A DNA stretch of 64,000 nucleotides from Marsupella aquatica (taxonomy: Eukaryota; Plantae; Marchantiophyta): positions 3,758,738 through 3,822,737 of the forward strand of contig OZ316896.1 in the NCBI GenBank assembly GCA_973895155.1, read 5' to 3'. The translations under genes and the position numbers were made by a program. A model generated the notes under the pieces. The model saw only the letters and a program-made list of their open reading frames with translations. It was not told where the DNA came from and made no database searches. Of the stretch, positions 5,530 to 59,394 are shown piece after piece. The stretch's first letter is position 1; the number at the start of each line of letters is the position of its first letter.

Positions 5530-6520
5530 TCATGCCAAACCAACCATCTTTAGTGAGTCAGCCCACAATCGATCCTCCTTCTCTTCGTCGTAAGCATGGT
5601 TTGCATATCCAGGATCGATATCCTTATGACCCTCCTTCACCGGAATGCTAACCTGCACATCCTCCAAATACTTGCCGCCCTTCCCCTCCCACTCCTTCCC
5701 CACAGCCGCCCAAACAGTCGTCGCAGCCCCCTGTTCCGTGCTCTTTATAACAGCATCGATCCCGGGCGAAGTCTTCCACCCTTCCAGCACCTCCTCTGAT
5801 AAATGTCTGCTGAGCGATGTCCAGATACCCCCCGGGTTCAGGCTCGTCGCGTGGAGGCCCTGCAACCCGAAATGCCGATCAATGTAATTGGCCATATAGA
5901 TGTTTGCCGTCTTGCTTTGCCCGTATGCGAGATAGGGACTGTAGTCTCCTGTTTTGAAATTGTAGTCGTTGAAGCGGACGACGCCAAAGCGGTGGCCGGA
6001 TGATGCAACAACGACGACACGCGAGTTGAACCCCGGCGTGGAAGAGGCGAGCAGGCTGGGTTTGAGGAGGTTGAACAGCAGGAAGTGGCCGAGATGATTG
6101 GTGCCGAATTGAGTTTCGAATCCATCCACAGTCGTGGTGCCGGGGGCGGGTATGGCCATCACGCCTGCGTTGCAGATGAGGACGTTGATCGGTTCTTTGG
6201 CGGATTTGGATAGGAACTCTGCTGCTGCCGCTCGAACACTCTCCAGGGAGGAGAGGTCCATGAACAGCAGCTCGACGCGGCCCGGCTCGAGCCGTCTTAC
6301 CCTTCTCAATGTCTCGTACCCCGCAGTACACCGTTGCTCCTGTGGCGGCGATGGCACGGGCAGTCTCCACGCCAATTCCTGAGGAGCAGCCGGTTATTAG
6401 AAAGGTTTTGTTCTTCAATTTGCCTTCCAGTCCTTCGTCCTGAACGATTTGCAGAGCTGTAGGTCGGGCGTCGCCTGGTCCCTGAGGGTTCTCATGGACT
6501 GCTGCGTATTTGGATGCCAT
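5530..6520 (-). pseudogene. Short-chain dehydrogenase/reductase (retinol-dehydrogenase/WWOX-like, fungal type), intronless, single frameshift near 6290
   Basis: ORF 5879..6520 gives the N-terminus (GPGDARPTALQIV...LITGCSSGIG, TGxxxGIG motif). ORF 5530..6375 gives the rest (DLSSLESV, CNAGVMA, DGFETQFGTNHLGHF, YGQSK catalytic YxxxK). The frames switch at minus-strand aagacgG|CTCGAGccg, where a few residues are missing between KGKTA and LEPGRV. Confidence 0.85.
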
Positions 6521-9500
6521 GGTCGGAGGACGAACCAGAACCGCAGCTGGATTGGACGAAGTTTATGGTATGCCTGCTCTGTGGTAAGCACTGTCATGCA
6601 ATTCTGCATGTGGACTTGGGGAGTTTGGAGAAAGATGCATCGAACACTTATACTCTCTCGATCTGCCCCCTTTTTCTTAGAGGTTGGTACTGAGGAAGGT
6701 CCTCGGACGAGCCATGCCGCCTCGATCTAATTATGCTTTGTTGCAGATCAAACCGTCCTCGAGCCGGCCGATCATTTGTTCATACCAAAGGAACTGACGA
6801 TAAACTAAGCTCTAAAATTTATCATTCGAGATTTGCACCATGATGTGTGCTGGTGCCCATCATCGTCTGATTGTCGGGGCGGGCGAAAAAAACATAATCA
6901 TGTTCCTTCTACAACCCTGTCTTCCGTAGAACTCCGCTGTGGTTTTTTGGTTTCGGTCGACGAAGGAGTATTTTCACACAGAACTTCCACAATCTTAGTT
7001 CGGTCAAAGAATTGCGTTGCACAGCAACATCGTGAAATACTGAAATGTCGAGAAAGCTCCGGAATACTCTCTACTGATTTGCACGCAGGGACAGAATCAA
7101 TGGCGGGTCACGTGAGCTGAGCAACTCGGGTGACGAGATGTAAGTACGTCTGCAGTGGTCCATCCAGCACAGCTGACACCAGAATTGCAGAAGTCAAGCA
7201 AGACCGAAGACAGACATTATTTATAATAGTGCCCATCTCGAATCCTGTCTCATGTGGGTTGGAGCCGCCGAGTCGTCACCCTTGTCCATCATTCTGGTGA
7301 TGGTGGCTGGACGAGTCTTCCCCCTGACCCCTTGCAGCATGGCTCGTTAGTTTGGAGGAGTCCATTCAAGCTGTTTGCTTCTTATGAATCTGAGCCGATC
7401 TGAGCCCAATAGGGGGTGTCAAAGTTCTGGTGCGGGCTGTATTTTTTTTGTACATATCACCCTTAAAGGGTATATATTTTGGTAGCCCATAATGATTGAT
7501 TTTATCCTGATTGTAAGAGTATTTTTTTGTCCTGCTCAATTACAACTGTGCTTTGACATGCCCTAATCTCCTCCCCCTCCCGGCATGAGGGAGCACGAGG
7601 GTGTGGGTGTGGGACAGGCCTGCAGAATGGATTTCTGGCAAATCCAACTGTCACAGAAAAACGATCCCATAGAAGGAATGGCCCTGCCCTGTTTGCTTTT
7701 TGTGTGTAGATTGATAATGTATCGTTAGAGTTTTCAGTAACATGGTCAATCCTGAGTGAATCAACCACTAATTTCATTTGAATTGCGGGTGAGGTGATGT
7801 TTTAACTCAGCTTCAATGAGTCACTTCTGTCTCTTGCTGTCTGGACTTCTTGGATGACAAAATGTACTCAATGAATTGTCCCTTTGGTCAACAGGACCGT
7901 CGACATCTACCATTAAACTAAACCGCAGAGCTTGCTTACTGCTCTGTTCTGGCATTAGCGGTGCTTGCAGTATGTCCGTATTTCGCAGATTGCACTCCAT
8001 AGACTCCACAACTAATGCACTTCGTTTCTGTCTATCCTCCAGCTGAAAACAAGCCTTGAAGGTGAAACCCTTCCATTGTCGCAAGCGAAGCAGAAAATGC
8101 GCATCTCCTGCTTGTAACAAGATCAAGCCACCCAGAATCGTCCAAAGTTCTCCATGGTAGATTTGACAACGTATCAAGCAGTGTCCAAGACTTGCCTTTA
8201 CTGTAAATTTCATAGCAGCCGTCTTGACAATTAGATTCTCATCGAATTGCTGCAGACTGTATTGTCTTTTTTCCTTCGTTCATGCCAATACCTGGCGCAA
8301 TCTTATGTTAAGTTTTCAGCGATTCGTGATGGTCCCGTAGTCCGATTCGAGGCTCGTCGGGAGCAGACCGAGGACAAGTATTAGAGCATTGACTAACAAG
8401 GCTATTGTCTTTTACCAATCGTCGTCTCTATATCGACACGCAAAGTGGACAGTCTAGCATCATGACGCTGCAACAGAGACTCAGCTCCCAGTTACAGTTT
8501 CGAGCTTGAGGACAGCTGGGAGCAAATTTCTTCTTTGCTTTGTAAAGGTGAGATCAAACTCCCATATTTGTCTCTCATGCGGTAACTACAGTAGCTGGGA
8601 CCTCCCCAGCCCTTATGGCAATCAAGAAATCGAAATCGACACAAAGTCTCGGACCTACTGTATCGTATGGAGTTTTTTGGATAAGAATGGACCCGTGTTC
8701 TGAGAATCCCTTGCTTCTCGCAATCTGATGGTTGTTCATCCGTACTTGGACAGCAAATTTTCCTGTGAACCAATTGCAGTCCTTTTCGCTAATTGACTTC
8801 TTTGACCAGACATGAAACAACTCTCCAAGAGTCTACGTCCCCGACTTTTAAGTTCTCCTGGGGATGACCAAGACAACCAGATCGAAGCTTGAGCTATTTT
8901 CAAAAGCCATGGGTTCCCTGCATAAAATGGTTCACCTATGACTGCTGCTATATAAATGAGCTCTCCATTCTACCTCGCAACCTCAAAGTCTCTTTCAGCT
9001 TACCCAAAAACTCACTTTGAGAGGGAGATCTAGTTGTCGAGCAAAGGGCTTTCTTTGTTACCATGGAGGGGACTATTGATCTTAGTCAAGGAAATCTATC
9101 AAGTTCCGCTCACAGCCAGGACAGGTTCTGAGTGGCGTTTCCTATGCTTGTTTCTTTTCTTCATCCTGTTGGAATTTCTGTCAATCAACCACGCTCCCTC
9201 GTGGACTGCGCTCACATCTGCTCCCTCCCTGTTCCTGTAAACTATTGAAGTGACAGTGTCTCTGTACGTAATTCCGTTGGAGCAAAATACTCAGGTGTTA
9301 GATCCGGAAGGTCACACAGGAAGGGAGACAATCATCACGTGTAATCTTCATTTCCACCTTGTGAATCGGGCTTGTCTCGGTTCAAAGTTATTAATTGATG
9401 TGCTAAAAATAACTGCATCCACCCCGAAAATTGAACATCAAGCATCACTCGTGACCGACAGAGAACTATTAGTCTTGCCAAACGCTCATCCTCTTTACTG

Positions 9501-17770: not shown

Positions 17771-20700
17771 TCTGCAAGAGTTGGAAAGAGCACAGGATAA
17801 ACAAGAACAAAAGAGTAAGCTACATGTGCCAAAGATGCTCTTCTATGCGATGATCAAGCAGAAAGCACTAGTTGCAGAAGCTGAACAAGGAAATTACACA
17901 AGTCACACTTGTACATTTTACCTCCTTTATTTCATTCTTTCCACATCGAACACCTTTGTAACATAAAATATGAAAAATCATAGATCCCATTGTGTCTGCC
18001 ATTTTACCACAACTATATCTGTTCTATCAACTATTGAACTTTTCTGATCAATATTGTAACGGACATTATTTCCGTTACAAAAAAATTGGACATATCAATC
18101 AAAGTTTTTGTTGAGGGACCCGATATGTTTTGTAATTTATGGATATGATCCATTTTTTAATGCATTGGAAAGGCTCAGTTGTTAATTGTATCGGAAAGGA
18201 AGATATCTAAAGCCAAGAGTATGGCATTTTGTCATTTTGTGATAATGGGAGTTTCCAATTCTAAAAGAATAGGATACCAATTGTTTGCAAAAATTGAGCA
18301 TTGAGAATCAACTTAATATGTACTAGTGTCAAACAAAAATTCAAGACCGGTGAGAAGTTTTCGAGCAAAAAAGAGAAGAGTTTAGGGTTTTAACTTAGTG
18401 GACTTACATTTGATCGTTGTAATTCTGAATGGGCATTGTGATCAAATTAAAACCCACATATGCACAGAATGCGTGTAAAGAGCAGGTAGTACGAAGGCTT
18501 TCAATTTTGGCAAGTTATATTGTGACTAGCCCAATGCCTGTGCTTTGCACAAAAGATATTGAGGTGAAAAAAAAGATGTCAGGTGAGAAAAAGATGTCGA
18601 GATGAAAAATATGTTGATGAGAGAAAAAGATTGTAGCTTGGGCAGGCATTTATTTTGAAGGGTGTGTATGGATAGATCTGATGGTGTAGAAAAACAATGT
18701 TTTGATTAAGGTCTAAGATCTATTCCCATTTTTTATGAGTTTGGAAAAGAACTATCCCATCTTTTTGGTGGGATAGGGTATTATATGGGAGACGCTCCTT
18801 CCCCCTTTCATTACCTCAAAGATACATTACAAAGGAAAATCAAATTTTAGCTTTTTGAGAAAGAATAAAAAACAAAACTACACAAAAATCCTTCCCACTA
18901 ATAAATATATTGTTCAAAATTATAGACACCCATTTGGAGAGTATTACTCTACTTCCTTCCAATAATACAAATGTTATAGCATGTAATGATTGAGTACACT
19001 ATTGAATATTCATATGTGACAAAAAAATTGTGCTATTCTTAACTTGTACTCGGTAGGTGTTCACTCCCAATTATTATCACCTAGGTAGCACCTACAGTAG
19101 GTACTTTATTGTCTTGTTTGTTTGGTTATACTCATTTGTAACTCATCAAAGGTGAGAATAAACTATAACATAAATCCAATGATAAGCAAGTGTTCCCACC
19201 AAATCTCATTTTGTAAACGGACAGTTATGGACAACTTTTGGCGGGATCAAGTATTATAGTTGTAGACAAGGATCCAATTGTCCGACGTCACCCTGACCAA
19301 ACACAAGATATAAGTTCAGAACTAAGAAAACAGGCAACACAAATATTGAAACAACTGACAAGGCAACTCAAGGCATCAGTCAAACTAAAACGCAGACATG
19401 GACAGAATTGTAAGAGCAAGCTATATACAGCAAGGATACTTGCAATTTTGGCAATTTTGACAAGCATAACAAAAGAAACAAAATGTTGCCAATTGACAGA
19501 AATAATTTGGCGGATCCATTTGTGTCCATACCAAATGAGTTGGGGACAGCTTGAATGGAGCACGTCTAGTGAAAGGCTGTGTAGAGACAAATGACAACAA
19601 ACACTTTTCGTTATACACTCTTGGTATAAATAATTAGCTCAGGGTACGGATGTTGTGACATATTTTTCAGTGGATATGTCTATTGAATAAAAGTAATACA
19701 TGTTGACACAGTTTTTCAATAAATATGTCACTCGAAGCAAACCTTTGTCACAGTTATAGTGAGCGTTTGCGAATTCTTATATATAATGTTATTCTAACAA
19801 AGAATAACCACCACCTGTCGAACATGAGATGCATGAACATATGCCAAACACACCAGGCACATCAATTACTGTAATTTTTTAGTTGGGAAGCCAATTTTTG
19901 TTCCGTTGAGGAACTTCATAAAAACAAAATAAGAAAAAGAAATTGAGGGTTTATGAAAAACAAGCAAAGCATGAGAGTTGAAACCGAGTTAACACAGTAC
20001 AAGTACATCGTAGCTGAGTACAGTCACCCAATTTCCTTGGTGAGCTGTTTTATATCGAGATTTAATGCGAGTTATTACACTCTCATAACTCTCATCCTTC
20101 CAACTCTGCAAACCAAATGAACCCAACTGGCTCTGCTGATTTGATTTACATCCCACCTTGCTAATCAACACATGATTACAAGATGGAGACCACGCCATTT
20201 GAATATTGGCAGGTATAGAGAACTTCAAAAGAGATTTAACCTTATTCCATGACCTGCAAATCCCCTTCCCACAAATTTGAACCAGCCAAAATATTATTTA
20301 TTTGATTATTTTCTTGACCGCCAGATATCTCTAGATTTAAATATCTCTTTAAGGATGACCATTAGATTCATTCTGGCTAATGGGACTTGTGATTAGGTGG
20401 AGCAATGAGACAGAAAATAGTGACCTCCGGTTAGATGGAACAGTGGCTAATGAGAGTGACTAATGAGACAGAAAAATACTAGAATTTTAGGCAAAACTGG
20501 ATAAAGTTTTTTGGGGAGGTGTAATTTGGTGAATTTTCGCCACTAAAAAAAACGGCGCTCCCTACACATTACACTGTTAATTCCTTCCCACTTTTATCAT
20601 CCAGTTGAAGACGGCGGCCGTGTCGTAAGGAAGGCAGTTTGTCTGGATCCCTGGCCGTTCCCCGCTTCCCCGTTCCCGCAATCAAAACCGCTCCCAGCCG

Positions 20701-23672: not shown

Positions 23673-26600
23673 CCCTTAGACTTGAAGGACTCGGAATTTG
23701 AACAAACCTCGTCACCGGTAGAAACGTCGCCGTTGCGATCAGTTCGTATGCCTGTGCGGATGATGTGAAGTATTCTACCGTTCACTGTTCCTGATTCACT
23801 GGTTTTATGCAATGGAACTACCTTGGGCACTCCCTAAGAATCATGACGAGCACTGGCATGCATCGGTCGCATATACTCAACCCGCATTTGACCAATCAGG
23901 GAGATGCATATTGTCTTCTGCGACGGCAGATGTCACTTCTAAGGACTCGCCTTGGCCGCTACCAGTGGGACAGTATGAACGCGCCCGGGCGTCAGTATTG
24001 ACTCGGAAACCGAAAGTGGATTGGTCTGGAAAAAGCATTTATCACACTTACTCAATTTGCTTTGAGGTAGTCGAAGTAGGGCTGGATCCCGTGCAGCAGA
24101 TGGCGTCTGATTTTGCTCTCGTTACGCCACGGGCTCTGGATTTAGAGGTGGCTCAAATGTCAGTTAATCTGTTCTTGCCATGGCAAGCTTCTGTGAGAGC
24201 CAACGTGACCGAATGCGGACGGGTAACACTGGATGCTGGCCAGGTCAGCTTGCTGTCTCGTGATGTGGACCTCGGGTCGTCTGAGCATCCACCACTACCA
24301 TTCATTCCGTCGAATCAGATGAGACGTATAAATTGCTTCACGATTTGGAAAGGAATTCTGCTCGATCGTTATTTCTCAATAGGTGCTGCACTAGTGTCCA
24401 CGTAGGATGACCTCAACGAATTTTGCTTACTTCGTGAGATTGATATTCATTTTTCTACGTGGAATAAACTGGCAGGTTGATCTTGTGAAACGATTTAATA
24501 CATGGCTGTTCGATGTCGTTTTGGGGAAGCCGCCAATTGCAACTGGAGCCGTGCCGAAGTCCAATTTCGTGGACAGTCCGAAAGGCTATTACGTACTTCC
24601 TCTGCAACCCAACAGCAGCATTAGACCGGCCGAATTCGATTGGGAAACTATAATTTCTTCTTTGACATCAGGTTTGATTTACAGAAAGAAAGTCCAATTT
24701 TTTGGAGGCTTCGCCAAGCTAGAAGCCGGAGACATCGACTGCGACCGTGCAGCTCTGAAGCAGGGCGAAATCAGAATGAGGAATGGGAAATTTACAGAAG
24801 AGGATTTAGATGATGCCATGATCACGGGTGCTCACAACGGCATGCCTTGCTATCTGATAGCGATATCCAAGCATATCAATGGCTCAAGTGACTTTCCTTG
24901 TGCAGAGAGCACTGGGAGCCTAACCTATGCGGATTACTACTCTTCGAAGTAAGTCACATTCTTTCATCACCATCATGTTTCTCTGATTGTGTAGGAATCC
25001 TGCCTGTTTTGTGTTCTTAGGCTGTTCTTTCTGGGGTTTCTCTTAAGAATTTGAGAGTCATTAGTTTTAATGGATAGGGGAGGGGCCTTCGATGAGTCCA
25101 GTTGGTTCTATCACTGGGCGTCACTCACATCAGGTGCATTTTATGTTGGAGGGAAACTGAGTACTTTGTAAGGTCGTTAACACTGCTTGTTTCTTTGTTT
25201 CTGGAGATGCGGGTATCGTCTTCAGTGCGAGAGTCAATCATTTCTTAAAGTTCGTCGGCTTTCACGCGCTGCCAATTATTTAAAACGCCAGGAAGCCGAT
25301 ACTGCCAGGGGTATTCTCTTTCATTCCAACAGTTTAGTCTACTCCATGTGATGGGAAGCTGGAAGTTTCGACAGCGCGTGGGGATTTGTCTAGTAATTAC
25401 AAGAAACTCCATATTTCTCAGACGTGTATCTCTCATGTACTCTCCGTTTCCGCTTTTATTTCCGCATGGAGGCCGTGTTGACATTCGAGACTCTTTCCAA
25501 TGTCCCAAGGGAAGGTGGCGCCAAGGGCGAATGAAACGTTGGAACTACCGCCAGAGATTTGTTCAGTCCATGTGGGTGTCAAGGGGAAGCTATTGAGGGG
25601 TGCCATGCGCCTTCCATCTGTTCTGTTCAGCCTGGAGACAGCGTTGTTGGCAGCTGAGCTCCGTGACAATATTGGAGTGCCCATATCTTGCTTCAAGGTA
25701 TATTACGTCATCATAGGATATAAGCTATTTGCCTTCACAGTTGCTCCCTCATGATCAATGGTCTACCTGATACGTTCCTTATGTTCCTTCGATCTTGTTG
25801 GCATGCATTCTGGCGATCTCTATGCTTAATTTTCCTGTGTAACGTACACGTTGAATACGTCTGCGGCGTGCCTGGTCCTTTCATTTAGTGTTTTCAGCGA
25901 AGTTCTCGCTATTTCTCGGACTAATTCCGCTTCCATGCTAGAGATGACCTGCACTTCGATGCTGTTTTCAATCCTGAAGAAGCTTACGTGAATTGCTCAG
26001 GTTCAGACAGGTCCAGTTTCGGTTGGGGACATCAATGGAAAATTCAGCTCCTCATTAGCTTCTCGTAGATGTCTCTTAGCCGTTAAATTCCCACAACTTG
26101 AGAAGTGATTGCGTCCGCCCGATGTTGTTGCCTCGTCTATTAACTTACAAAAGTTTTTCTAAGATAGCTGGCAGTAAATTTTGCCTTAGGCCGAGAACTC
26201 GTTCTTCTTTTCTACATTAGAGTTCATCTATAAGATTATTTCAAAGGTCTCCATGTCTCTTGGTCCTGCAGGTGCTCGAAGCTCTTACTTCCAGAGCTTG
26301 TCAGGCAGACATATCATATGAGACTTTGGAGCTTCTCGGCGATAGTATACTGAAGCTCACTGGCTGCACCTACCTCTTTCTGAAAGAATCATTCAAAACC
26401 GACGCGCAGCTCGGTGCAACCCTCTATGAGCGAGTTAGGAATAAGACGCTATATTATCTTGCTCGTCCTCGCAACCTCGCAAGGTACGCGTTGGTGGAGC
26501 CTTTCGGTCCCGGTTTCTGGGTCCCCCCGGGTCTGGTAAGAGTCGAGGCTGAAGATTTCTGTTGCCCGGAGAAGGAACAGAGGCGAAAATTTCAGCTCGT

Positions 26601-28540
26601 TCCCTGCAAGACGCTAGCTGATATCGTGGAGGCCCTTCTGGGGGCCTACCTCATGGAAGGCGGCCTTGACAAGGCCTTACGAGCTATGGCTTGGCTACGT
26701 ATTCCTATCAAATTTCCAACTTCATTACCGGAAACAGTGACAGCATCACTGTTCCGGACAACGAGTTCTATAGAATTATGTGAATTGATTAACGTGGACG
26801 AGCTTGAATGCAAGCTTGGTTACAGTTTTAGAAACAAGAATTTTCTTGCCGGCGCTTTGAAGTGCGAATTCCAGGATTGCCCTGAGAATTCACTGTTCAA
26901 GCGACTGGTGTTCTTAGGCGACGGTATTGTCGACTTTGTGATAACTCGTCACTTGATAAGATCATATCCAGATCAAGATGAAGGGAAGCTCAGCGAACTC
27001 AAACAAGCTATACGAAATAGCGAGAATTTAGCTGGAGTTGCTGTCCTACATGGTCTCCATAAGCATCTACGGAAAGTTTCACCGTCACTGGACCAACCTA
27101 TCGCGGAATACATTAGATCTTTCTGGAAAGAGGGAGGGAAGGCATTCGGCTTGTCGACTCTATGCGCTCCCAGGGTACATTACATTGAACCTCATACCAG
27201 TAGATTTCGTTGGGATTGTACAGTATCGTAGAAAGAGCAATGTTGGAACTACGATTCATACCACAGGCTTATACCATAATTGATGGTCGTTCGGTTCGTT
27301 TTTCCTGGTAAACTTCTCGGGCAATGTTGTGTCTTTGACGGATCTGGATTTCTCATCGTGCAGGGTCTCGGAGACTTACTGCAAACATTAGCATCTGCAA
27401 TATACATAGACTCCAATCTCGACATCGAATTGGTTTGGCGGGTGTGTGATCGGTTGAACTTTTTGAGTTGCGTATTTTTGGAGTTGCGTCAACCGTTCAG
27501 GCTATGAGCTTATCTCGATGCTGTGTCGGATGCTATTGTGAGTGTACTATTGAAGGGCTAAAAAGGGGTTCGATTTCTCTAGGTAGGTATACATTTGCTC
27601 ACTATGAAACCGAGATCAAGGATTTTCTATCATGATCGGTTCGAGTCTGCAGACCTTACTACACGACTTCTTTTCTCTCCCCTTGAAAAGAACCGCTGGT
27701 GTACCCACTTGATCTCGGCTTCGTTGTGAACGAATGGGCTATTCATTCAGAAAAATAGAAACCTGTTTAAACCATTGCGAGCCCTTTGCCAGAGATAAAA
27801 TGGTCAATGAGTTCTAACATTCGCATCCAGTCCGCCCAGAGTAAGGCCTCATAGACATAATTTGTATGGATGACCTACGATCATGCCTTCTTTATAGATC
27901 TTATGGTCCCGGTGGTAAGTACCATTGACGAGATTGATGGGGAAGACAGTACTGTAGCTAAGCCGTACGAGTTAGAAATTCTTAGTTAATGGCAATCTTT
28001 CAGGAGTCTATTTAGTTGTCATTACCTTCAACAACTGAGTATAACGGGAAATGCAGGTACTTAGGCCCTTGCTGGAGCCTTTAGCTACTCCACTCACCGT
28101 CACCTTGCACCCTATCAAGCAACTCGAAACCATGTGTGTTGAAAAGGGGTGGTCGTTGAAGATCCATGTGAACCACTTGGAAAAGTATGTGCAAGCGGAA
28201 GTGTGGATCAATGAATTGGTGATGGGCAATTCGCAAAACGAGGACAAAAAAGTTGCTCGCAGGCTGGCGGCATCGATGGTATTGTTCAGGCGGCTTTCCA
28301 ATTTGGCTTAGGGCATGAGAATACCCTTTTCTACTGAGATTTAAGATGCGCTCAGATATGTCACTCGCCTCGAGTGTCTTGTGTTCTTTAGCGCAGGTCT
28401 GTTAGTTCTTCAATGCATCATCACAGGTAATTGTCATTTCGTGAGCCCATACTGATTTATTGTTTATCGACCTTCATGCGTCGCAGGCTCTGCAGGGTAT
28501 CTCTCATCAAAATAGTGTCCAACCTGTTGAAGCCTGCTAA
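23673..28540 (+). CDS. Dicer-like protein, helicase not detected: platform-PAZ-connector-RNase IIIa-RNase IIIb (degenerate site)-dsRBD. Exons 23673-23745(?), 23930-24243, 24476-24948, 25207-25310, 25510-25697, 26272-27174, 27364-27441, 28057-28278, 28487-28540; 5' end unresolved
   Basis: All junctions are GT-AG and phase-consistent. Platform: YSICF..D....SDFALV...LDLEVAQMSVNLFL and YYVLPL...DW. PAZ: HNG..Y.I......NGSSDFP...TYADYYSSK|CGYRL..ESQSFL. Connector: ELPPEIC...LPSVL. RNase IIIa: SYETLELLGDS...KTLADIVEALLGAY. RNase IIIb: LGYSFRNK...KRLVFLGDG...GDLLQTLASAI. dsRBD: HPIKQLETMC...KKVARRLAASM|AL. Confidence 0.9.
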
Positions 28541-28782
28541 TGAGTGGAGCGTTGGAGCCAACATTTTATGAGTTGACCAATGAAATCACCAATTTCTAGG
28601 ACATTGAAATTCTGCATGCACCGGCTCTGAAGTGAACATGACGAGCTACCGTAGAACAGGCAGATGTAGAGGTCTTTCTATTTTGAGTGGGATAGAGGCA
28701 ACTGAAGCTTAGAGAGCTTCGTCCGTTCCGAGGGGCAATTTTTTGAACGCTCAGTAGCTCAGTTTGTCGTAGGATGGCCCAC

Positions 28783-29000
28783 AACTGAAACCTGGAGCCG
28801 AAACAGCTCGCCCAGGTGGCAAGATCATAATGAATTGTCCAGAAAGTCTTGAAAGGCCGATCCGATAAGATGTATAGATGTATCTTCTGGCCAGAACTGA
28901 ACCCTGGAGCCGAAACAACCTTCATCCAGGTGGCAAGATCATACTGAATTGTCGACCAAAGTTTTGAAAAGGCCGATAAGTTGTATAGATGTATCTGCTG
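28783..29000. repeat. Tandem duplication, about 112 bp x2
   Basis: aactgaa.cctggagccgaaaca...ccaggtggcaagatcata.tgaattgtc...tgtatagatgtatct occurs twice. Confidence 0.8.
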
Positions 29001-29275: not shown

Positions 29276-29429
29276 TTGTAAACCATATCACAAGCAGTGG
29301 TGGAATCTTCGACATTGCAAGAGACCCCGGGAAGCTAAGTATGGGATCATTGTAACCATTATCACAAGCAGTGGTGGAATCTTCGACATTGCAAGAGATC
29401 CCGGGAAGCTAAGTATGGGATCATTGTAA
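29276..29429. repeat. Tandem duplication, about 74 bp x2
   Basis: ttgtaa.ccat.atcacaagcagtggtggaatcttcgacattgcaagaga.cccgggaagctaagtatgggatca occurs twice. Confidence 0.85.
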
Positions 29430-29700
29430 GCTTCGACACCAATTGTCACATAACAGGGCCACTGTATGAGACCGCTAGAAGGAAGGTATGGAATGGAATC
29501 CTTATAAACACAAGTATGCCCCCATTTTCACGATGTATAGGACATCGTAGTCACGCAGATTCTTGACATCTACACTCGATAAATCTCACCAAATTCTACA
29601 TTCAAAGCCTATTTCAGGCACTTTGTGTTTCAAGAATGTCAACAGGAACGATTTTTTCTACCCTCCTATGTACACCTCCTCCCCGACTCTGGCATAGACA

Positions 29701-29876
29701 ACCTGCCTTCGTTCTACTCATCCACATGGACTCTTTCGGGTTGACAACGAGTTTGAAAAACACAACTTCCATGACCATAAAACTAGGAACCTGCCTTCGT
29801 TCTACTCATCCACATGGACTCTTTCGGGTTGACAACAATTTTGAAAAACAGAACTTCCATGACCATAAAACTAGGT
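29701..29876. repeat. Tandem duplication, about 88 bp x2
   Basis: acctgccttcgttctactcatccacatggactctttcgggttgacaac...ccatgaccataaaactagg occurs twice, near-identical. Confidence 0.9.
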
Positions 29877-32383: not shown

Positions 32384-35300
32384 ATGGCGCAGAAGAGGAC
32401 GGCGAGGAGGTCAGAGCTTGCCGATGATGAAGCTGACGTTCCTCTGCAGGCTGTTCTGCTGGCAGACAGTTTCGCTCAACAATTCCGTCCTATCACCGAC
32501 GAGCGCCCCAAGGTCTAGCCCGCCACTTCTCTGTGTGGGTGTTTTTGCAAGTGAAATTGTCCATATGTCGTCAATTGTGGTGTTTAGAGATAACTGAGCA
32601 GCATGATTTCTGTTTTTCACCTAGCCACGAAAATCATTGAGTAACGTTCCCTTTGTCTACAGGTGCTCCTGCCTCTCGTGAATGTGCCAATGATTGACTA
32701 CGCTCTTGAGTGGTTAGCGTCTGCGGGGGTTGCTGAAGTCTTTGTCTTCTGCTGCGCCCACGCCAAACAAGTGACGAGTTACCTGGAACAGTCGAACTGG
32801 TCGTCACAACCGAACTTCAATTTGGCCACCATTGAGTCGAGGGACTGCGTGAGCGCCGGGGATGCCCTCCGTGTCATTGATCAACGCAATGTGGTAAGCA
32901 AGACCATTTTTAAGTGTAACCATTACCTACCTCTAATTCCTGCCTCAGTGCACAAAACAAGTTCAGGTTCGAGTTGCCAACAGAAACTATCACAGAGCTC
33001 ACATGACAAGGTTTTAAAAGAGAAGAGGTCTATGCACGTGGAGGCTATCTCAGTTATTCCCCCCTGAATATCGGTTTTGTTTTGTGTCGTTGTACTACCT
33101 CCTAGAATCCTCTGTGGATTAGCAATTTTGGTATTTTCCCTTTTTCGGATTGTTGTGGTGGCTCCTAGAATCGTCTCTGGATTAGCAACTTTTGGTCTTC
33201 TCCACGTGTCTCCTTTCTGCCCCACAACACCACAGCACTGAGACCACACCACCCATTCCAGGGAAAATCCTGACTCGTCATCCCGGTAGTTTTTCCATAG
33301 TTTGGTCGATGGGATGAAAGTTTATCTCACTCGCCTGTGTCTGATGAACTCTTCCTGTTCAGATCCGTGGAGATTTTGTCCTTATAACTGGCGACACTGT
33401 CTGCAACATGTCATTGAAAGAGGTGTTGAAAGAGCATCAGGAAAGAAGTAAGAAGGACAAGATGGCAGTGATGACAATGGTAATTAGAAGGTCAAAGCCT
33501 TTGCCTTTGCTTCATCAAACACGCCTGGGTAATGAGGAGCTACTTTTGGTCATCGACCCTTCGAGTAAGCAGTTGTTGCATTATGATACACTGAAGGAGG
33601 CAAGCGGGAGTGGGACCGCAAGGCAGCAGTCACTTGCAAGGCAGGTGGTACTGGAACGATCATTACTGGAGGATAGACCAGCAGTGCAACTTCGTGCTGA
33701 TATTCAGGTGTTTAAATTTTCCCTAATAAGACTCGAAGTTTTAATGTATTATGGATTCTAGTCGGTGATTGTCGAACATTCCCGTATACTCTTTCACGTG
33801 GGTCAATCAATCACGGATAGTTGTTCTTGAGGGGGAACATACGTGCTTAATGAGAGAAGTTCAGGCTAAAATTTGGATTCACCGTTTAATATCATTCTTA
33901 CTTAGGCAAACAAGCATTAGGAGTCAAGCATTACATGAATGGCAAGTAACTTGTCTGATCATGGCTCGGTCGTTGTTTTGAAGAGCTTGTATTTCAATGA
34001 TAATGAACCCTTCCCTGTCCTTCACTGCCCCTTTCGGCACTACCCTCTTCGCTTAGTCAAATACAAACAACACGGTTCAAAAGAGTGCTGGCTTTGTCAT
34101 GGAAGTCGTTTGATTTGATTTATCAGAGGTTTGTCAAACAAGAGATGGAATTTCCTCATGTACTTTATTTCCAGGCTTGGCATGTGTGACAAAGAAGATC
34201 AGAAAGCAATCAATTGAACTTCTAGTAACATTGTGCCGAATTTTGCAGGATTGTCACATTGATATCTGCTCTCCAGAAGTTCTTGCGTTGTTGACAGACA
34301 ATTTTGATTATCAGCACTTGCGCCGTGATTTCGTGAAAGGACTGCTTAGTGATGAGGTACGGAATTTTCTCCTAGCTGGTGATTGTAGTCTATTTCACAG
34401 TGACAATTGTCTTTGACGGGATGATAATTTTCATTCTTTGAGCATTGAACTCTCTGGTTATCTGGAAATTTATTCGTAGTGAAAGGTTTTAGGGGGCCCA
34501 CCAGTTTGATTTGGGAGGGTTCAGAGGTGTCGGTTCTATTTCAGTGTACATCTTGCAAGGTCGTAGCCAATTTTTGAATCTGGAAATTGACCTCATCTGC
34601 GATTTGTTTGAGCAGGTGATGGGAAACAAAATACACACTTTTGAAATATTCGGGCATTATGCCGCTCGCGTCGACAATATGCGTGCTTATGATGTGATTA
34701 GCAAGGATATCATTGAAAGGTGGACATACCCCATGGTACCAGATATTCGGTTTTCCAGCCCAGGCAAAGGAATGAAGGTCGGACGACGCAATGTGTACAC
34801 AGAAGATGGTAATAATCTATCCCAAAGATATCCAATCTGGCTATGGGGATAATCATAGCTGTTGGCAATATGGAATTCCTCTACTCCGCTCATCGCCTGC
34901 ATCTTTACAAGCAGTGCCTGGAACGTGATTGTAAGAGGAGTCTTCTCACGTAACATTCTCCTAGGCATTAGGGTAGATATCTGACTTATCGTCATGTCTG
35001 TCCACGACAGGGGTTGCTGTAGCACAGACTGCTAGCGTAGGTCCAAGTACCGTGATTGGTACTGCGACAGCCATTGGGGAGAACAGTAGAATTCGGAATT
35101 CTGTTATCGGACGAGGGTGCACCATAGGAAAAAATGTGCTAATTGAAGGAAGCCATGTGTGGAACAATGTGACCATCGGTGACAATGCACAAATTCATTC
35201 CTCGGTAATTTGCGATGGTGCCATAGTGAAGTCGAGGGCCATTCTTGAACCTGGAGTTGTCTTGTCTTTCAAGGTCAGAACTTCTTATACACATTCAATC

Positions 35301-38300
35301 ATTTTCTCATCGTTTTCTCATCGTTATCTATGTGTTGTCCCGAAACACTTTCCTAGAGTCCAGGTTTGACGGTATCATTGCTTTTTTTTGTGTACTTTTA
35401 TGTGCTATCAGAAAGTTAACTCCAAGCGAACAGATGCATTCTCTCCACTTCAATTCAGTTTCAGCAAGTACACAGTAGAAATTTAATTAGAAGATACATT
35501 CCTTTCCATATAAGCCATGACGTACATCCACATCAAATCAACTGTGGTAACGCCTTATTGCAGGTTATTATTGGAGAAAATTTTACAGTCCCAGCGTACT
35601 CCAAAATTTCTCTCATTCATCAAAGCCCTGAGGAAGACAGCAGTGACGAAGAGCTAGAATATGGAGAAGCTGATCGTGGGGACGTTGCTGAAAGCCCTCC
35701 TAGTCCCCTTCATGGTAAGTGTTTCTCAAAGATCAACTTTGAAACAATTACTGCACATGCAGCGTCAAGAATCAACTGCGTTTGTGCTTAAAATGACCCA
35801 GTTGAGACTTGCATGGCAGAAGCACAAGGCTGAACCGTGTCCTTTGATAGCTTCACAATTTCATGTTGAAGCTACTCTTTCAATAATAAAACATGTTTCA
35901 AACTTGGAGGGGGTTAAAAACTCACCCGTGAACTTGCTGAAGGTAGACGCTAGGGCCTCCTTAGCTACCACATACTTGCCTAGCTATGTATTATTAAAGC
36001 GGTTTTCATCTTCTTTCCACTGTCTTTTAGGTGTTCATAAATGTAAGAGCAAAGGAGAATTCCCTGCAGATTGAGTTCAATTACAATCTTAACCTTTCTG
36101 TGTTGTCTAACATAGTTCTTTACATAATCTTTTCAGTCTTATCATTTGAAACGTCGGTCAACGAGAGATGTATCGAATGGTCTTAACATCCTGTAACGCT
36201 GTTGTCGATGTTTTGTTATGTTATAGATGGTGAGGTAATCAATGGCTCTCCCGGTCATGTGGGCATTGAGCATCCTGAGGGACCAAGCTGGGAACCATCA
36301 GAGGTAAGGATTGAACAGTTTTAGTAATGCTGGGCTCGAAGAACCTCTTCATCTGCTGGATTAGCTAAGTTCTGCGTCAAGTATGAAGCTTGGCCATATC
36401 AAGTTTGTGTTTACTGGATATGCTTCTGGAATAGAAATGGAACAATGCAGACCAAACTCAAAATTTGATGCCCGATTGTCCCATCAGACTCAGATACTAG
36501 TCATAATTATTCAGCGTCTCGCTGCTGTGTTGTCAACGTCATCGTACACTAGTGTATTAAAGTTACTGGTTAAAGAAGCCTTGTATCTCTGACAGGTTGG
36601 AGTAGGAGGTATTGGAAGCAAGTGGTCCAGTGGCCAAGAGGAAGAGTGGAGGCATTCAGTCGCTCCTATCCCTAAGGAGAAAATACAAGAGGTTGCAGCA
36701 CGGGAAGAGAAAGGTGAAGTAGAAGACGCTGCCGAAGACCTCCTGATTCTTCCTAGCAATGACAAGGCTGCGGAACTTGAAGTTGATGAGGAGGAAGCAG
36801 ATGAAGAGGACGATGACTCGTACTTCCAAAGAGAGGTTAATCGAGCATTTCTTGCTTAGAGATTTCATTCAGTTTCTATGTTTTCCTGGAAACCAAGTCT
36901 TCATCGATTTCGGTCCCTGATTTGATTGGGTTGTCTTGACCCCTTGTTCGCACTAATGCTAGATATGCCTGGGAATCGCTTCCTGTTTGGTCGTCTATAA
37001 ACTGCTTCATTGTTCAGGTGTGGTCTAATCTAATGTATATTCCTGACTAATTTTCCTTGAAAAGTCTTGCTGAAAAGTTTATCGACAAACTGGTATGCGT
37101 TTGAAGGTGGAGGACACGTTTAGAAGAGCTGTTACTGGCGAGTCTGGGACGCAGCAAGATCATGTTGTGATTGAAGTCAATGCCCTTAAGTAATTCATCT
37201 CGGACCCTATCGCGTTCGTCTAGTTACTTTCTTCTCTGTTGTCCTCTTTTCACACTTTAATAGTTCCATGGTCCAAGCTGATTATTTTTAGCAGTGGAGG
37301 CTGAATGATAAGGAGATGTTCTGGATATGTTTGTTTTCTCAACAAAATTTATTCCCCTAGTACAGCACTCTGTCAGTTCCGTTCTACACAGGAAGTTTGC
37401 TCGGAGGGTAATATGGGCTGTCAACGTCAGATGTTGTGCCAAACTTTGTATATCTTCTTGTATTGGACTTATGTGGATATTTGGTTCAAACTCGCAGGTT
37501 GGCATATAACCGGTCATTTTCGGATTGCGCTGGAGCAATGTTTAGTGCTTTATTGAATCTTGCATTTGAAAACCCCCATACAACTTCAAGTAAATCACTT
37601 TTCCTTGTTTGAACTACTTCCATGGTGAATTGCAACGTGCATAGCATGGGCCGCAGATTTTGACGGCTCAGTACTTCATTTTCTACAATGAAGTTCTTGG
37701 AGTAGGAAACCTGGATCGGTGAATTTGCTAGGCGGAGGGGATTGAACCTAAGGCATCCGAATTCATGTGAATGTTTACAGAGGAATTGCTGCAAAACACA
37801 AAAGAAGTGGTTTTAGAGTGGGGATCGTTGCTTCGTCGATTTTTGCATCATCAAGATGATGAAGTAAGCGAAGTGCATTCTCATCCAGTTGGTTGGTTGA
37901 GTAGTCATCCTTAGAGTGACGTGTTTTCAATTGGACATAGATACTGGTATTCTGCTTATCAGCAACTCAGGGTGGTGTTTGAACTGTGTGCTAGATGGAA
38001 GTACTGCTTAAGTTTGAGGAAATCTGCTTATCTGACAACAAGGAGTTCGCCCCCATTTTCTCTTTGGTAAGGTTCAGAGGTGAATTTTGTTCTTCCACGG
38101 TTTTCGTAAAACCGTTGTGTTTTATCGATTTTCGTTTTCTGGGAAACTGACGGAAAGCACACGGGGGGCTACCAGATCCTTCAGGAGGTCTATGACAAAG
38201 AGATCATAACAGAAGATGCCATCCTTTCCTGGGCTTCAGAGAAAGAAGGTGGGGATGAGGTAGACAAATTGTTTGTCAAACAATGCGAGAAATTTATACA

Positions 38301-48144: not shown

Positions 48145-51100
48145 ATGGTGAACCAAGGCGATACTAGTGCGAAGGAAGGGCTGGGGATGTCAAAGAATGG
48201 GCACTCTCAAGGTATAAGTGATCAACAGGCTCTTGCAGATCATGACAGTCGGGTCAAGTTGGAATCAGTCGAGAAGAAACGTGAAGGAGGTGGCTGGATA
48301 ACCACTCCCTTCATATTTGGTAATCATACACTCACCTCTACCTGAACACTGCAATTGTCACTGTTTTTCACTTCGAATCCTGACTATCTCTGAAACGATT
48401 GTTCACTGACTGTCACTGAAAGATCGTTTCAGAGGCAGTCAGGATACGAAGCAGAAAACAATTTAGCTTTGTCAGCGACCTGATGTGAAGTCTACATAGC
48501 CATGAAACAGGTCAGATTTTGCGTCATTCTAAACAGGACAGTTGCCAATATATATATGGATCAACTCAAATCACTCCAATGCTAGGATAACAATTGCTTT
48601 TCGATTTGTTGAATGAAACTCGTAGGGTGCGAGGCGGCGGAGGGTCTTGCCGGTTTTGGAGCCCGCGCGAACTTGATCAGCTTCTTGACACAACTAATGC
48701 ATTTGAGGACGTTGGCGGCTGCAACACTTCTAAATGGTCTTTCAGCTATGACAGCGGTCTGTTCTTTGCTTGGCGCATTTGTTGCCGATGCGTACTTGGG
48801 CCGATTCACAACAATCGCTCTTGGTTCCTGGATAAACATAGCGGTGAGGGCTCCACATTACTGAACTGTCCTCAATTCGTTGTATACAGATTTCAACAGA
48901 CGAGTTTCGAGTGCACGGTTGTTCAATCCTACACGCTCACGATATCAACCCTTCTGTAGGGCGAGTTGAAATTTTCTGAGCTGGAACTAACAGCTTTCTT
49001 TATAAGTTAGTAGACTAACGTAGTCGGAAGAACCGCAGGGGTTATTTACATTGACGATCATAGCATGGCACAAGACGCTGCATCCGCCAGCATGCACAGT
49101 CGTGGAGTCCAATGCAGGAGCCTGCCAGAAAGCCTCGAATCTGCAGTTGGGAATTCTCTACCTTGCTTTTGCACTGATGGCATTGGGATCAGGCGGGATT
49201 CGTCCGTGTGTAGCCCCCTTTGGAGCCAGCCAGTTCGATCAGACCCACCCGGAGGAGAGGAAGCAGCTGAAGCACTACTTCAACTGGTACGGTACCTTCA
49301 TACTGGCACCCTACGTGCCTCATTTGCAAATTTGTTGTGAGAAGATTCGAACATAGTTTTCGCTAAGCTAAAAAATTCCATCTCAAGCACAAAAGTCTCT
49401 TGAGCGTACTTCACCTCGGTTGTAGGATGTGTTCCTTGATTATCTCAAACTGGGCTGGAATCGTTGACTCCTAGGTACTTCTTTACGGTATCATTTGCAA
49501 TGCTCTTGGGGAGCACAATTATCGTGTACATTCAAGACAACATCGGATGGGCGCTCGGCTTTGGAATTCCAACCATGGCCGTCTTTCTGTCGATTGTATT
49601 CTTCTTTGGAGGAATGCGCCTGTACAGGTAATCGACAAACTCCGTAATTGTTGATTACCGGGTTCATGTCAGCCATTTGGGCAGCTTTTGCGACATATAG
49701 GCAAATCGAGGTTAGACGTACTAGCACAAGTGTCGATCTGCAGTATGACTATACGGTCGCTTTAGTTTCAAAGCATCTTCAAAGTTTAATCTCAGTACTA
49801 GAGCAGCAGAATTGAACTGCCAGTTCGTTTTCTGTCAGTAGTGAATGTGGCAAATCGACATTGCTGGCAGCTGCTCGGTTTGCATGCGTTGAAGTCGGAC
49901 AAGATTGCACGATGCTGATTAAAATCACTTTATCTATTGGTTTTATCTGAATAATCATAACATGAATGCGATCGGGAATGCGATTTCTGAAGACTGGATG
50001 CTGCCAATGGCATGGGTGGGTCGTTGCACTGGGAAGTTAGCTGGCTTTAGATCACAGCATGCAGCACGTAATCAAAAATCCACATCCCGTCAGAGAGTTT
50101 CCACACCAATTTTCAAACTAAGCTTATACTCGATTCCTCGTGCATGATGTGCTACTAACTTCGTTAAATCCGTTACTTTATACTTCAAATATCGGTAAGA
50201 ATAGAATACTAAACCAAGTGTTTCTCCCCGGGAAGAAAATTACCATTTTGTTAGATCTGTAAACACCCTTAGTTAGGAGAATGTCATTCGATTGATTCAG
50301 GAACTTCCTCAATTTCCTTAATGATAGTTTTCCATTAGCTTGGTACCATAACGAAAGTTTTCCATCAGCGAGCTGCGTACAGTCACTATACTTTTCCACT
50401 CGCTTCTAGAGTCTCTACCTAGCTGTTAAAAATATATAAAAAATACACTTCGACAATAAGGCGGAATTGCTCTGAAGGCCAGTCCCCCAGCATCGCCCCC
50501 CCCTCAGAAAAAACAACAAAGACGGAGGGGTCTTACTAGATAACATGAATCCTGGGTGCTCATTAATGTGAAGTTTCCTTCCCTGCACTTCACTAGCAGT
50601 AACTTTGTTTGTAAGCTTTGTGAGGTTCGTTAGCAATATTAAAAATCAGAATTTGCTAGCTTTTGTAGTGGACTGTAGTGGACATGACGGCTTACTGCAA
50701 ACTTGAGGGATGATGATCGAGCGAGAGCCTTTCTGTAATCTCACACGTAATACATAATTTCATGCGCTACGGTCACTACAGGTACAACCCTCCTCGAGGT
50801 AGCCCATTCACCAGAATGGCACAGGTCGTCGTCGCCGCAATTCGGAAGAGGAAGCTGGCAGTGCCAGAGGATCCGACGAGGCTCTACCACGGCGGTACCA
50901 ATATAAATGGAGGCGAGAGCGAGGACCTCGAGAAACCAAGTAGCGACGACGACGAAGCTGCAGTCGAACCCGTTACGGAGCTGAATCATTCTGTAAATGA
51001 TGCGAAGTCGCCAATTATCATCCGAATGAATCTAGCAGGAGGTGGACAAGCCCCAGTGACAGACGTTTGCACTGCTCCAGGTGAGCAGAAATTGGACGCG

Positions 51101-53255
51101 GCGGCTGATGAAGAAAAGAAGCTCGAAGTGAAGAAGATTAATGCAGACACATTCAAAGCGGAGAAGACGGATGAGAATTTGATTGAGAAACAGAATGGGC
51201 ATGAGAAAGTATACGACAAGGAGAATCATGCTGCAGAGGAGCACTTGGAAAACAGCCGCGAGGCAATGACGGTGGGGTCTCACTATGGAATTGAAGGCGA
51301 CGACAGTGCCATCGTGCTACGTCACAGCGACCAGTTTCGGTAGATTCTCTTGAAATGAGTGTAGCTCTTTCTTAGCTTGTGTCAGTTGTTTCAATAGTCT
51401 TAAATTACTTGTCTCCTTAATTGCTTGCACTTCTAAGGGATTTCTCTAGTTGTTGGTAGAAGCTTTTCTACAGACCGCAGAAATGACATGAATGCCTATG
51501 AGAGATCACTCGAAAAACAATACTAAGTACGGGTGTTCGGATATATTCCCTGATTTGGTCCCAAAATACCCACGACAAATAGTCGGTAAGCATACTCCAG
51601 ATCGTGAAATCAATCACTAGGCAATCACTTTGTTATTGTACAACATTGAGCAAAAAAGTAAAATCTCAAAAAGATCGAAATCTAGTTCAGAAGCACAAAT
51701 ATCACGAATTTCATCGTGAAAAATAACGATTCAAACAGCAGGAGAAAGCTGGGTCAGAACTAATGTAAAAGATTCAAACAAGAATGGGAAAACAGAGACA
51801 TGAATAGTTACGGCCACTCCTTCCTCATCGGGCAAGGATTCTTGATTCTTGAAATCGAGTCTCCATATTATGACTAATTCTTTTTTCATTAATCACTGCG
51901 AAAACAAAGAGGACGTGATTTCCTTTCCTTTCCTTAGTGTTTTAAACTTTTCTCGTTTACATCTAGACGTACAGGTTCCTCTACTTTACTTCTGAAAACC
52001 TCGCATCATAGGGTAGCACTCGTCCTTATGAATTTATGATAAACACATGTCACCGCGCGCGAATCTGTTCCCCACCTACGAACCATCGATTTATAACTTG
52101 GATGTAGTACACATTGAAGCTTTGCATATCCTGCTTGACTTACTTAATCAGACAGCAAATTTCATCCTTTAAATGCAGGTTCTTTGATAAAGCGGCCATT
52201 GCGGTATCGCAGGACTGGTGCAATTCGTATGGAAACGAAGGCCAGATCCTAAAATCCAGGTTAAATTCATGGAGTCTGTGTTCAGTCCATCACGTGGAAG
52301 AGCTGAAGTGCATGGTGAGGCTGGCACCGATGTGGGTCACGGTTATACCAATGGCCTTGGCCATGACTGCGGAAAGGACTTACGGAGTGGAGGTATATTA
52401 CTCGTCCACCGATCACTCCCCATACCTGCAATCTGAGCGAGTTGCTGTGCATTCTCATTTACCCAACTGAAGGCGATGATATAGCTTGCAAGCTGGTTAT
52501 GCATGACTCAAAGTTCGATATAATTGAACGACGACTTCCATTTTTGAGTTCAATCTCGAGCTACGTACAAAATTGTTTGAAATGTGCAGCAAGCGAGGAC
52601 TATGGACCGCCACTTGGGGCATTTTGTCATCCCTGCAGCGAGCTTTTCAATATTCTCAACCATCACAGTGCTTATCTGGTTACCCATCTACGACAAGAAA
52701 ATAACCCCGATCTTGAGGAGATACACCGGCAAAGAGAGAGGAATCACCTTCCTGCAAAAAATAGCAGTGGGGATGGTTCTCCAAATTTTGGGTCATCTCG
52801 TAATAACACTAGTAGAGCACAAGAGAAGAGGGGCTGCTCATCACTATGAGCTCGTTGACAAGCCACACAATACGATCCCAATCTCTGCATTTTGGCTATT
52901 GCCGCAGCATGTCATTAATGGCCTGGCTGAGAGCTTTATAATGGTTGGGCACATCGAGTTTTTCTATTACATGCTGCCGGAGCATTTGACAACCACTGGC
53001 TCTGCTCTCTTCCTGACAGCCACCACCATCGGCGCAAGTTTGAATACGGCCCTTCTGCAGGTTGTTGAAAAGGTTACCACATGGCGCGGCCATCCGGGGT
53101 GGCTGGACAACAACATCAACAAAGCTCACCTGGACTACTTCTATGGGCTTTTGACGGTCGCGCTTGTTCTGGACTTGGTGCTCTACCTCGTGGTGGCCCG
53201 TTGGTACAAGCGACAACGGCATCTCAACCAGATTATGGATCAATCAAGCATGTAG
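48145..53255 (+). CDS. NRT1/PTR family (NPF) transporter; exons 48145-48319, 48626-48843, 49039-49286, 49475-49627, 50782-51339, 52179-52392, 52590-53255
   Basis: GGWITTPFIFG; LLGAFVADAYLGRFTTI; LGSGGIRPCVAPFGASQFD; YFNWY; VYIQDNIGWALGFGIP; GSPFTRMAQVVVAA; FFDKAA; LCSVHHVEELK; QARTMDR; SAFWLLPQ; WLDNNINKAHLDYFY. Junctions are GT-AG and phase-consistent. Confidence 0.95.
48362..48460. other. Imperfect hairpin of about 49 bp in NPF intron 1
   Basis: tgtttttcacttcgaatcctgactatctctgaaacgattgttcactgac pairs with gtcactgaaagatcgtttcagaggcagtcaggatacgaagcagaaaaca. Confidence 0.8.
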
Positions 53256-59363: not shown

Positions 59364-59394
59364 TGAGATTGCTCAGGTGTTTTTGTTGAAGGGC

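Follow-up and report, generated by a model that had tools for sequence, protein, structure and literature searches.

A Dicer without a helicase is an already published kind of plant protein; the minimal Dicer-like (mDCL) family is known to lack this domain, and knockouts of it have been described in moss and Marchantia. According to a review, the moss mDCL is needed for 23-nucleotide (nt) small interfering RNAs (siRNAs) and depends on DCL3, while the Marchantia Mpdcl1b knockout grows normally and tolerates salt (PMC11799827). In Arabidopsis DCL3, the catalytic residues E1146 and E1329 were each mutated to Gln (Loffer 2022, PMC8846587), and the E1329Q enzyme cuts only the 3'-overhang strand, releasing 23 nt (24 nt when the overhang is 2 nt long). 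In nature, the nearest parallel is the pairing proposed in trypanosome editosomes of an active RNase III domain (KREN1-3) with a degenerate one (KREPB4-8), which, unlike the one-chain mDCL, takes place between separate proteins, has no PAZ ruler and serves mRNA editing (PMC5416837). Here we analyzed a 64,000-nt stretch of the liverwort Marsupella aquatica (contig OZ316896.1, positions 3,758,738 to 3,822,737, hereafter the window), which carries an mDCL gene on the + strand, from the ATG at 23812 to the TAA at 28540, with eight exons and 817 encoded amino acids (aa). Judging by its catalytic residues, the second RNase III domain of this protein (IIIb) is very probably dead, the first (IIIa) is probably active, and the loss in IIIb recurs in every complete mDCL that we compared.

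Of 20 matches to exon 5, four are close relatives with lengths of 720-820 aa, from Calypogeia fissa, Marchantia paleacea, Riccia fluitans and R. sorocarpa; the full-length liverwort orthologues have 818-820 aa, and one shorter model has 720 aa. The window protein is 80% identical to the Calypogeia orthologue over 820 columns and 62% identical to M. polymorpha MARPO_0016s0027. That gene, Mapoly0016s0027 or Mp6g09830, is named MpDCL1b in the supplement of PMC11799827 (Csicsely 2025) and MpMDCL in PMC13738684. Further relatives came from Sphagnum, Ceratodon, Physcomitrium, Diphasiastrum, Selaginella, Adiantum (two proteins), Ceratopteris and Ginkgo, along with unnamed proteins, and no hornwort orthologue could be identified by name among the relatives found. 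The Physcomitrium mDCL is UniRef A0A096W0X2 (771 aa), whose cluster includes an entry with the name 'Minimal dicer' (P0211). With the 12 catalytic columns omitted, a 42-row tree puts 19 rows, including the window protein, P. patens mDCL and Mp6g09830 (P0022), on one side of a 99/99 branch, and a 74-row FastTree agrees; mDCL is a separate clade, and its branch position relative to DCL1-4 is not fixed by the tree. By its sequence, the window gene is the leafy-liverwort orthologue of Mp6g09830 and of Physcomitrium MINIMAL DICER-LIKE. With these two it has in common the architecture, the Gln in IIIb and, where testable, the exon borders, whereas its IIIb has decayed further (Val, Ser, Arg). As a point of nomenclature, the name MpDCL1b is ambiguous: PMC11799827 gives it to Mp6g09830, PMC13738684 to Mp7g16380 and PMC9291395 to a protein of full DCL1 architecture.

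Both the PAZ and the two RNase III domains are present, as Ribonuclease_3 was matched in the window exon and PAZ scored above the cut-off in the Calypogeia orthologue, to which the window protein aligns. Single-exon Pfam scans of the window gene gave no PAZ match because this domain is split over three exons. The PAZ residues common with DCL1 (His, Phe, Tyr-Tyr), which we take to be those of the pocket, are kept in liverwort mDCLs. DUF283 and the N-terminal helicase are both absent from the architecture, and the absence of the helicase, already claimed in the original prediction, was confirmed by domain scans and by tblastn with five full-length Dicers, which found no helicase exon in the whole window. 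An AlphaFold 2 model of the Calypogeia orthologue, used as a stand-in (predicted local distance difference test 75, predicted template modelling score 0.77, 24 sequences), matched whole Dicer cores over residues 46-812, the best being DCL3 (7vg2; Z 27.6, root-mean-square deviation 5.5, 676 aligned). The window protein is like DCL1-DCL4 in its platform, PAZ, connector, two RNase III folds and domain binding double-stranded RNA (dsRBD), and differs from them in having no helicase or DUF283, a single dsRBD and a lost second active site; these domains, together with the IIIb glutamates, do not fit a canonical two-strand Dicer. RNase three-like (RTL) proteins combine RNase III and dsRBD without PAZ, and the presence of a platform and a PAZ rules out this class.

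The four catalytic acids of RNase IIIa are complete (E419, D423, D516, E519), whereas RNase IIIb keeps its two Asp (D616, D704) and has lost both Glu, replaced by V612 and Q707; its conserved Asn and Lys are changed as well (Table 1). The motifs and codons of both sites had been called from the DNA letters, and all of them were found in place. Alignment and hand count also upheld the proposed match of V612 to E1705 and of Q707 to E1813 of human DICER1, which are hotspot positions in IIIb of that enzyme. In human hotspot mutants, cutting of the 5p arm is lost and that of the 3p arm is kept; these are somatic disease mutations, whereas the mDCL lesion is a lineage-wide natural state. Contigs from DNA runs X1 and X2 span all four changed codons with no alternative letter, those from X4 and X5 span some of them with no difference, and a contig from X3 is identical to the window over 26414-27456, while one of these five runs may be the window's own source. 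The four changed IIIb codons are no assembly error.

Around these residues, liverwort mDCLs also show a motif exchange (window 26386-26400 and 26977-26997), in that IIIa is without the usual Glu-Gly before the Asn helix and IIIb carries Glu-Gly where most Dicers have Pro-Gly; mosses are without these swaps.

The asymmetry between the two sites is family-wide. We aligned the RNase III region of 223 proteins and kept one complete mDCL per species, giving 15 (13 named species, the window protein and one unnamed) that span liverworts, mosses, lycophytes and ferns, with 171 other proteins as controls, counted in each column where they have a residue. Isoforms and near-copies, which had the same states wherever a site was covered, were dropped, as were the partial members without the last motif (P0064, P0070, P0093 and P0129). 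The last Glu of IIIb is found in none of the 15 mDCLs (Q in 10, S in 2, P in 2, K in 1), compared with 158/161 controls, a difference beyond chance. Its first Glu is kept in 7 of the 15 (controls, 162/166) and is V, G, S or A elsewhere, in different lineages; the Asn is kept in 3 (controls, 153/167), the Lys in 5 (controls, 151/159), and the two Asp in 14 and 13. The Sphagnum mDCL is without all four IIIb acids, and those of Physcomitrium, Ceratodon, lycophytes and Marchantia retain three. The corresponding E, D, N, D and E of IIIa are present in 15/15. Outside the catalytic sites, mean identity in mDCLs is 0.49 for IIIb and 0.52 for IIIa, against 0.54 and 0.52 in canonical plant Dicers.

The simplest reading is that the last Glu of IIIb would have been lost once, early, and that the remaining IIIb catalytic residues would then have drifted, the number of later changes being judged from tip states, with the IIIb fold kept and IIIa held fixed throughout. 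Among the 15, Val612 is shared only with Calypogeia, Ser649 with two mosses and Arg700 with eight others. The expectation that the IIIb loss is conserved consequently stands for the Glu-to-Gln position, which is changed across the family, and fails for Val612, Ser649 and Arg700, which are lineage-specific; the idea of four changes selected as one package does not hold either, as one is ancient and shared and the others look like later drift in a dead site. No orthologue with both IIIb glutamates, which would have refuted the original reading, was found among the 15, and the proposed preservation of the gene under selection is supported.

Two sequences outside this sample deserve mention. Ginkgo Gb_37867 (P0070) groups with ferns inside the mDCL clade (95/95), a placement that disagrees with the statement in PMC11799827 that the class is absent from seed plants; it keeps the IIIa acids, has Asp for the IIIa Asn and for the first IIIb Glu, and its model ends before the last motif. 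P0095, an unnamed protein of 608 aa, is related to DCL1 and lies outside the mDCL clade, and with Gln for the last IIIb Glu and its IIIa Glu kept it is possibly a second, separate one-bladed Dicer.

In the alignment, the IIIa Glu of the Calypogeia orthologue (E519 in the window protein) falls on 7vg2 E1187, and its IIIb Gln (Q707 in the window protein) on E1370; the 7vg2 chain exceeds the 1580-aa DCL3 by 41 residues, which makes these positions DCL3 E1146 and E1329, and the natural mDCL change is thus the E1329Q substitution at the same site. Residue, substitution and an intact domain A are common to both, whereas DCL3 E1329Q is an engineered mutant of a full-length, helicase-bearing DCL3 (PMC8846587) and mDCL is natural, helicase-free and closer to DCL1 (346 bits) than to DCL3 (272 bits) in sequence score. 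The original inference of a nickase has thereby acquired a direct experimental analogue. We give a probability of roughly 0.5 to mDCL being a one-strand nickase, which would likely work beside DCL3 on short heterochromatic siRNA precursors; whether it acts in the 23/24-nt pathway at all we regard as an even question. In such a mechanism, platform and PAZ would hold the duplex end, the dead IIIb would stay as a folding and RNA-binding partner of IIIa, and IIIa would cut only the 3'-overhang strand, at a set distance from that end. If mDCL behaves like DCL3 E1329Q, the cut would free 23 nt from a duplex with a 1-nt overhang or 24 nt from one with a 2-nt overhang, and the opposite strand would stay intact. 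The least certain points are the 23-nt length of the liverwort product and the order relative to DCL3, as mDCL could nick Pol IV-RDR2 duplexes before DCL3 or trim DCL3 products after it. More tentatively, a ruler-guided one-bladed Dicer may have been kept from liverworts to ferns, and probably in Ginkgo, as a separate nicking enzyme that together with DCL3 determines whether an siRNA strand is 23 or 24 nt long, and hence which strand is guide and which passenger, a task that DCL3 alone would carry out in flowering plants.

Several observations weigh against a nickase of this kind. At the IIIa Lys position, 7 of the 15 mDCLs have K and 8 have R, compared with K in 165/166 controls, and this change may weaken IIIa in Marchantiales and ferns. 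Because the IIIb Asp residues are mostly kept, conservation of Asp in IIIa says little, and the 15 mDCLs are related by descent and do not represent 15 independent events. Fern mDCLs have a divergent PAZ, and the Selaginella model lacks most of this domain; with the IIIa change, this would allow a weakly cutting or inactive protein in some lineages. The nickase anatomy by itself does not account for the dependence on DCL3, and no mDCL cleavage assay was found in the literature searched. On the moss mutant the sources diverge: the abstract of the founding paper reportedly sides with a requirement for 23-nt siRNAs. A second review (PMC10721683) gives the opposite phenotype, with 23 nt up and 24 nt down. 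In the Marchantia knockout, most of the changed loci are of the 24-nt class (136/217), which counts in favour of the nickase reading, and Table S8 of PMC11799827 lists, in control conditions, 13 up and 4 down for 23-nt loci and 46 up and 90 down for 24-nt loci, and under salt 50 up and 5 down for 23-nt loci and 225 up and 72 down for 24-nt loci. This table contains no loss of the 23-nt class, and its sign runs against the expected one; as it counts loci by dominant size, a shift within a locus would be hidden, which makes it a weak test.

It is also conceivable, though unlikely, that mDCL cuts barely or not at all and is a regulator that binds double-stranded RNA (dsRNA), occupying duplex ends and competing with or repositioning DCL1a or DCL3, which would shift product sizes and levels. 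The small effects of the Marchantia knockout in control conditions, the 403 loci up versus 111 down over all classes under salt, and the proposal of the PMC11799827 authors that MpDCL1b regulates MpDCL1a indirectly would suit a binder, as would the IIIa Lys-to-Arg change in 8/15 mDCLs. A pure binder should, however, relax both sites, and only IIIb is relaxed, since the Glu, Asn and Glu of IIIa are invariant in 15/15 and the matching residues of IIIb are changed in 8, 12 and 15 of 15, which counts against this explanation. RTL-type RNases damp silencing in flowering plants. The same site anatomy would serve equally in a turnover enzyme that attacks dsRNA or small-RNA precursors from either end by nicking and so degrades them, which would dampen silencing under stress, and the 21-, 23- and 24-nt loci that the knockout gains over wild type when both are under salt (PMC11799827) are in line with it. 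We nevertheless find turnover rather unlikely, as the reported need of moss mDCL for 23-nt siRNA accumulation points to production, and the excess of falling over rising 24-nt loci in control conditions stands against it too.

It appears improbable that mDCL cuts both strands, be it by residual activity of IIIb or by IIIa-IIIa pairing between two molecules. This reading draws on the three IIIb acids retained in Physcomitrium, Ceratodon, lycophytes and Marchantia, but the identical Glu-to-Gln change abolishes cutting by domain B in DCL3 (PMC8846587), the IIIb acids are lost 4/4 in Sphagnum and 2/4 in the window protein, the IIIb scaffold is conserved, and the model follows the normal one-chain arrangement. 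We see hardly any room for a decaying duplicate or a sequence error in this genome. Ten of 23 exonic variants in related DNA samples change a residue, among the best 40 of 289 rows, which would agree with decay; the open 817-aa frame and the identity to Calypogeia, on which a pseudogene was rejected, speak against it, as do the codons confirmed in other DNA runs, the lesion common to all 15 mDCLs and the phenotypes of orthologue knockouts. A one-strand nickase remains the reading that we prefer over these four.

In the original prediction the locus was thought to mark an undescribed plant small-RNA pathway, which is not the case, given that mDCL, MpDCL1b and MpMDCL have been described with knockouts. 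The family-wide damage to IIIb, in turn, seems to be unreported so far. The available texts on mDCL describe two RNase III domains without mentioning a lost glutamate, and no mention of a dead IIIb site was found by literature searches aimed at it or in the accessible parts of PMC11799827 and its preprint, PMC13738684, PMC10721683, PMC9291395 and bioRxiv 2022.01.18.476847, although one could appear in Coruh 2015, in figures or in closed supplements. The finding bears on the puzzle of a Dicer whose reported effect is on one size class and which reportedly requires a second Dicer. A family-wide dead IIIb makes a sharp biochemical prediction, for which DCL3 E1329Q is a ready positive control, and knockouts and small-RNA data already exist for two model plants. 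If true, mDCL would be a natural, ancient Dicer that cuts a single strand, the moss and Marchantia knockouts would read differently, and the origin of guide and passenger asymmetry in RNA-directed DNA methylation would be concerned.

The gene model combines splice borders taken from the DNA with tblastn against the Calypogeia orthologue (P0001), and its splicing is predicted. All seven introns are GT-AG, the first donor being at 24244, and the reading frame is open, in keeping with the intact splice sites and frame noted earlier. Translation most likely begins with the ATG at 23812 and not at 23673, where it had been placed, as the Calypogeia orthologue begins at the former; its residues 1-161 match 23812-24276, and P0024, a Marchantia exon product, shares the end boundary of exon 1. 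The stretch 23673..23745 (+), considered as a coding first exon, has AG/GT borders and matches no orthologue, and is probably non-coding (5' leader or nothing). The borders of exon 5 are identical to those of the Marchantia exon product P0025. In the structure model, exon 7 forms the helix-three strands-helix fold of a dsRBD, with a Pfam match below the cut-off. A 30-base stretch with AG/GT borders in the last intron (28398-28427) is missing from the Calypogeia protein and is possibly an alternative exon.

Table 1. Coding exons and catalytic residues of the M. aquatica mDCL gene, in window coordinates
Feature	Position	Strand	Basis or remark
Coding exon 1 (N-terminal tail with start codon, followed by platform domain)	23812..24243	+	First ATG of open frame 23764-24405
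Coding exon 2 (platform, start of PAZ)	24476..24948	+	tblastn 77% to P0001 144-305; Pfam PAZ = P0001 255-363
Coding exon 3 (PAZ)	25207..25310	+	tblastn to P0001 305-340; GT-AG borders
Coding exon 4 (end of PAZ, connector helix)	25510..25697	+	tblastn 89% to P0001 338-403
Coding exon 5 (whole RNase IIIa, most of RNase IIIb)	26272..27174	+	Pfam Ribonuclease_3, 2 stretches, E 7.9e-26
RNase IIIa first acidic pair, E419 (26329-31) and D423 (26341-43)	26329..26343	+	Intact
RNase IIIa Asn, N456	26440..26442	+	Intact
RNase IIIa K512 (26608-10), D516 (26620-22), E519 (26629-31)	26608..26631	+	Intact; E519 = DCL3 E1146
RNase IIIb Val612 (GTG)	26908..26910	+	Replaces first catalytic Glu (human E1705)
RNase IIIb Ser649 (AGC)	27019..27021	+	Replaces conserved Asn
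RNase IIIb Arg700 (AGG)	27172..27174	+	Replaces conserved Lys (human K1806)
Coding exon 6 (end of RNase IIIb)	27364..27441	+	tblastn to P0001; GT-AG borders
RNase IIIb Gln707 (CAA)	27382..27384	+	Replaces last catalytic Glu (DCL3 E1329, human E1813)
Coding exon 7 (single dsRBD)	28057..28278	+	91% to P0001; aligns to Arabidopsis DCL1 dsRBD
Coding exon 8 with stop codon	28487..28540	+	Matches P0001 C-terminus

Elsewhere in the window, a short-chain dehydrogenase (Pfam adh_short) lies on the - strand at 5530-6562 over two frames, which could reflect a frameshift, a small intron or a transferred gene, and it strikes us as presumably fungal in style. A high-copy repeat ends at 20500-20553, where the contig depth is very high and loose ends are numerous in all four runs. 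Downstream of the Dicer gene, three short head-to-tail duplications were seen by eye (about 28780-29000, 29277-29430 and 29699-29876), and the next gene is an intron-containing one on the + strand at about 32400-35400, of which one exon was scanned with no Pfam match and which we assume to resemble the translation factor eIF2B epsilon. Farther along are a POT/NRT1 transporter (50717-53255, +), a germin-like cupin (54181-54897, -) and an RNase H-like open frame (58638-59372, -).

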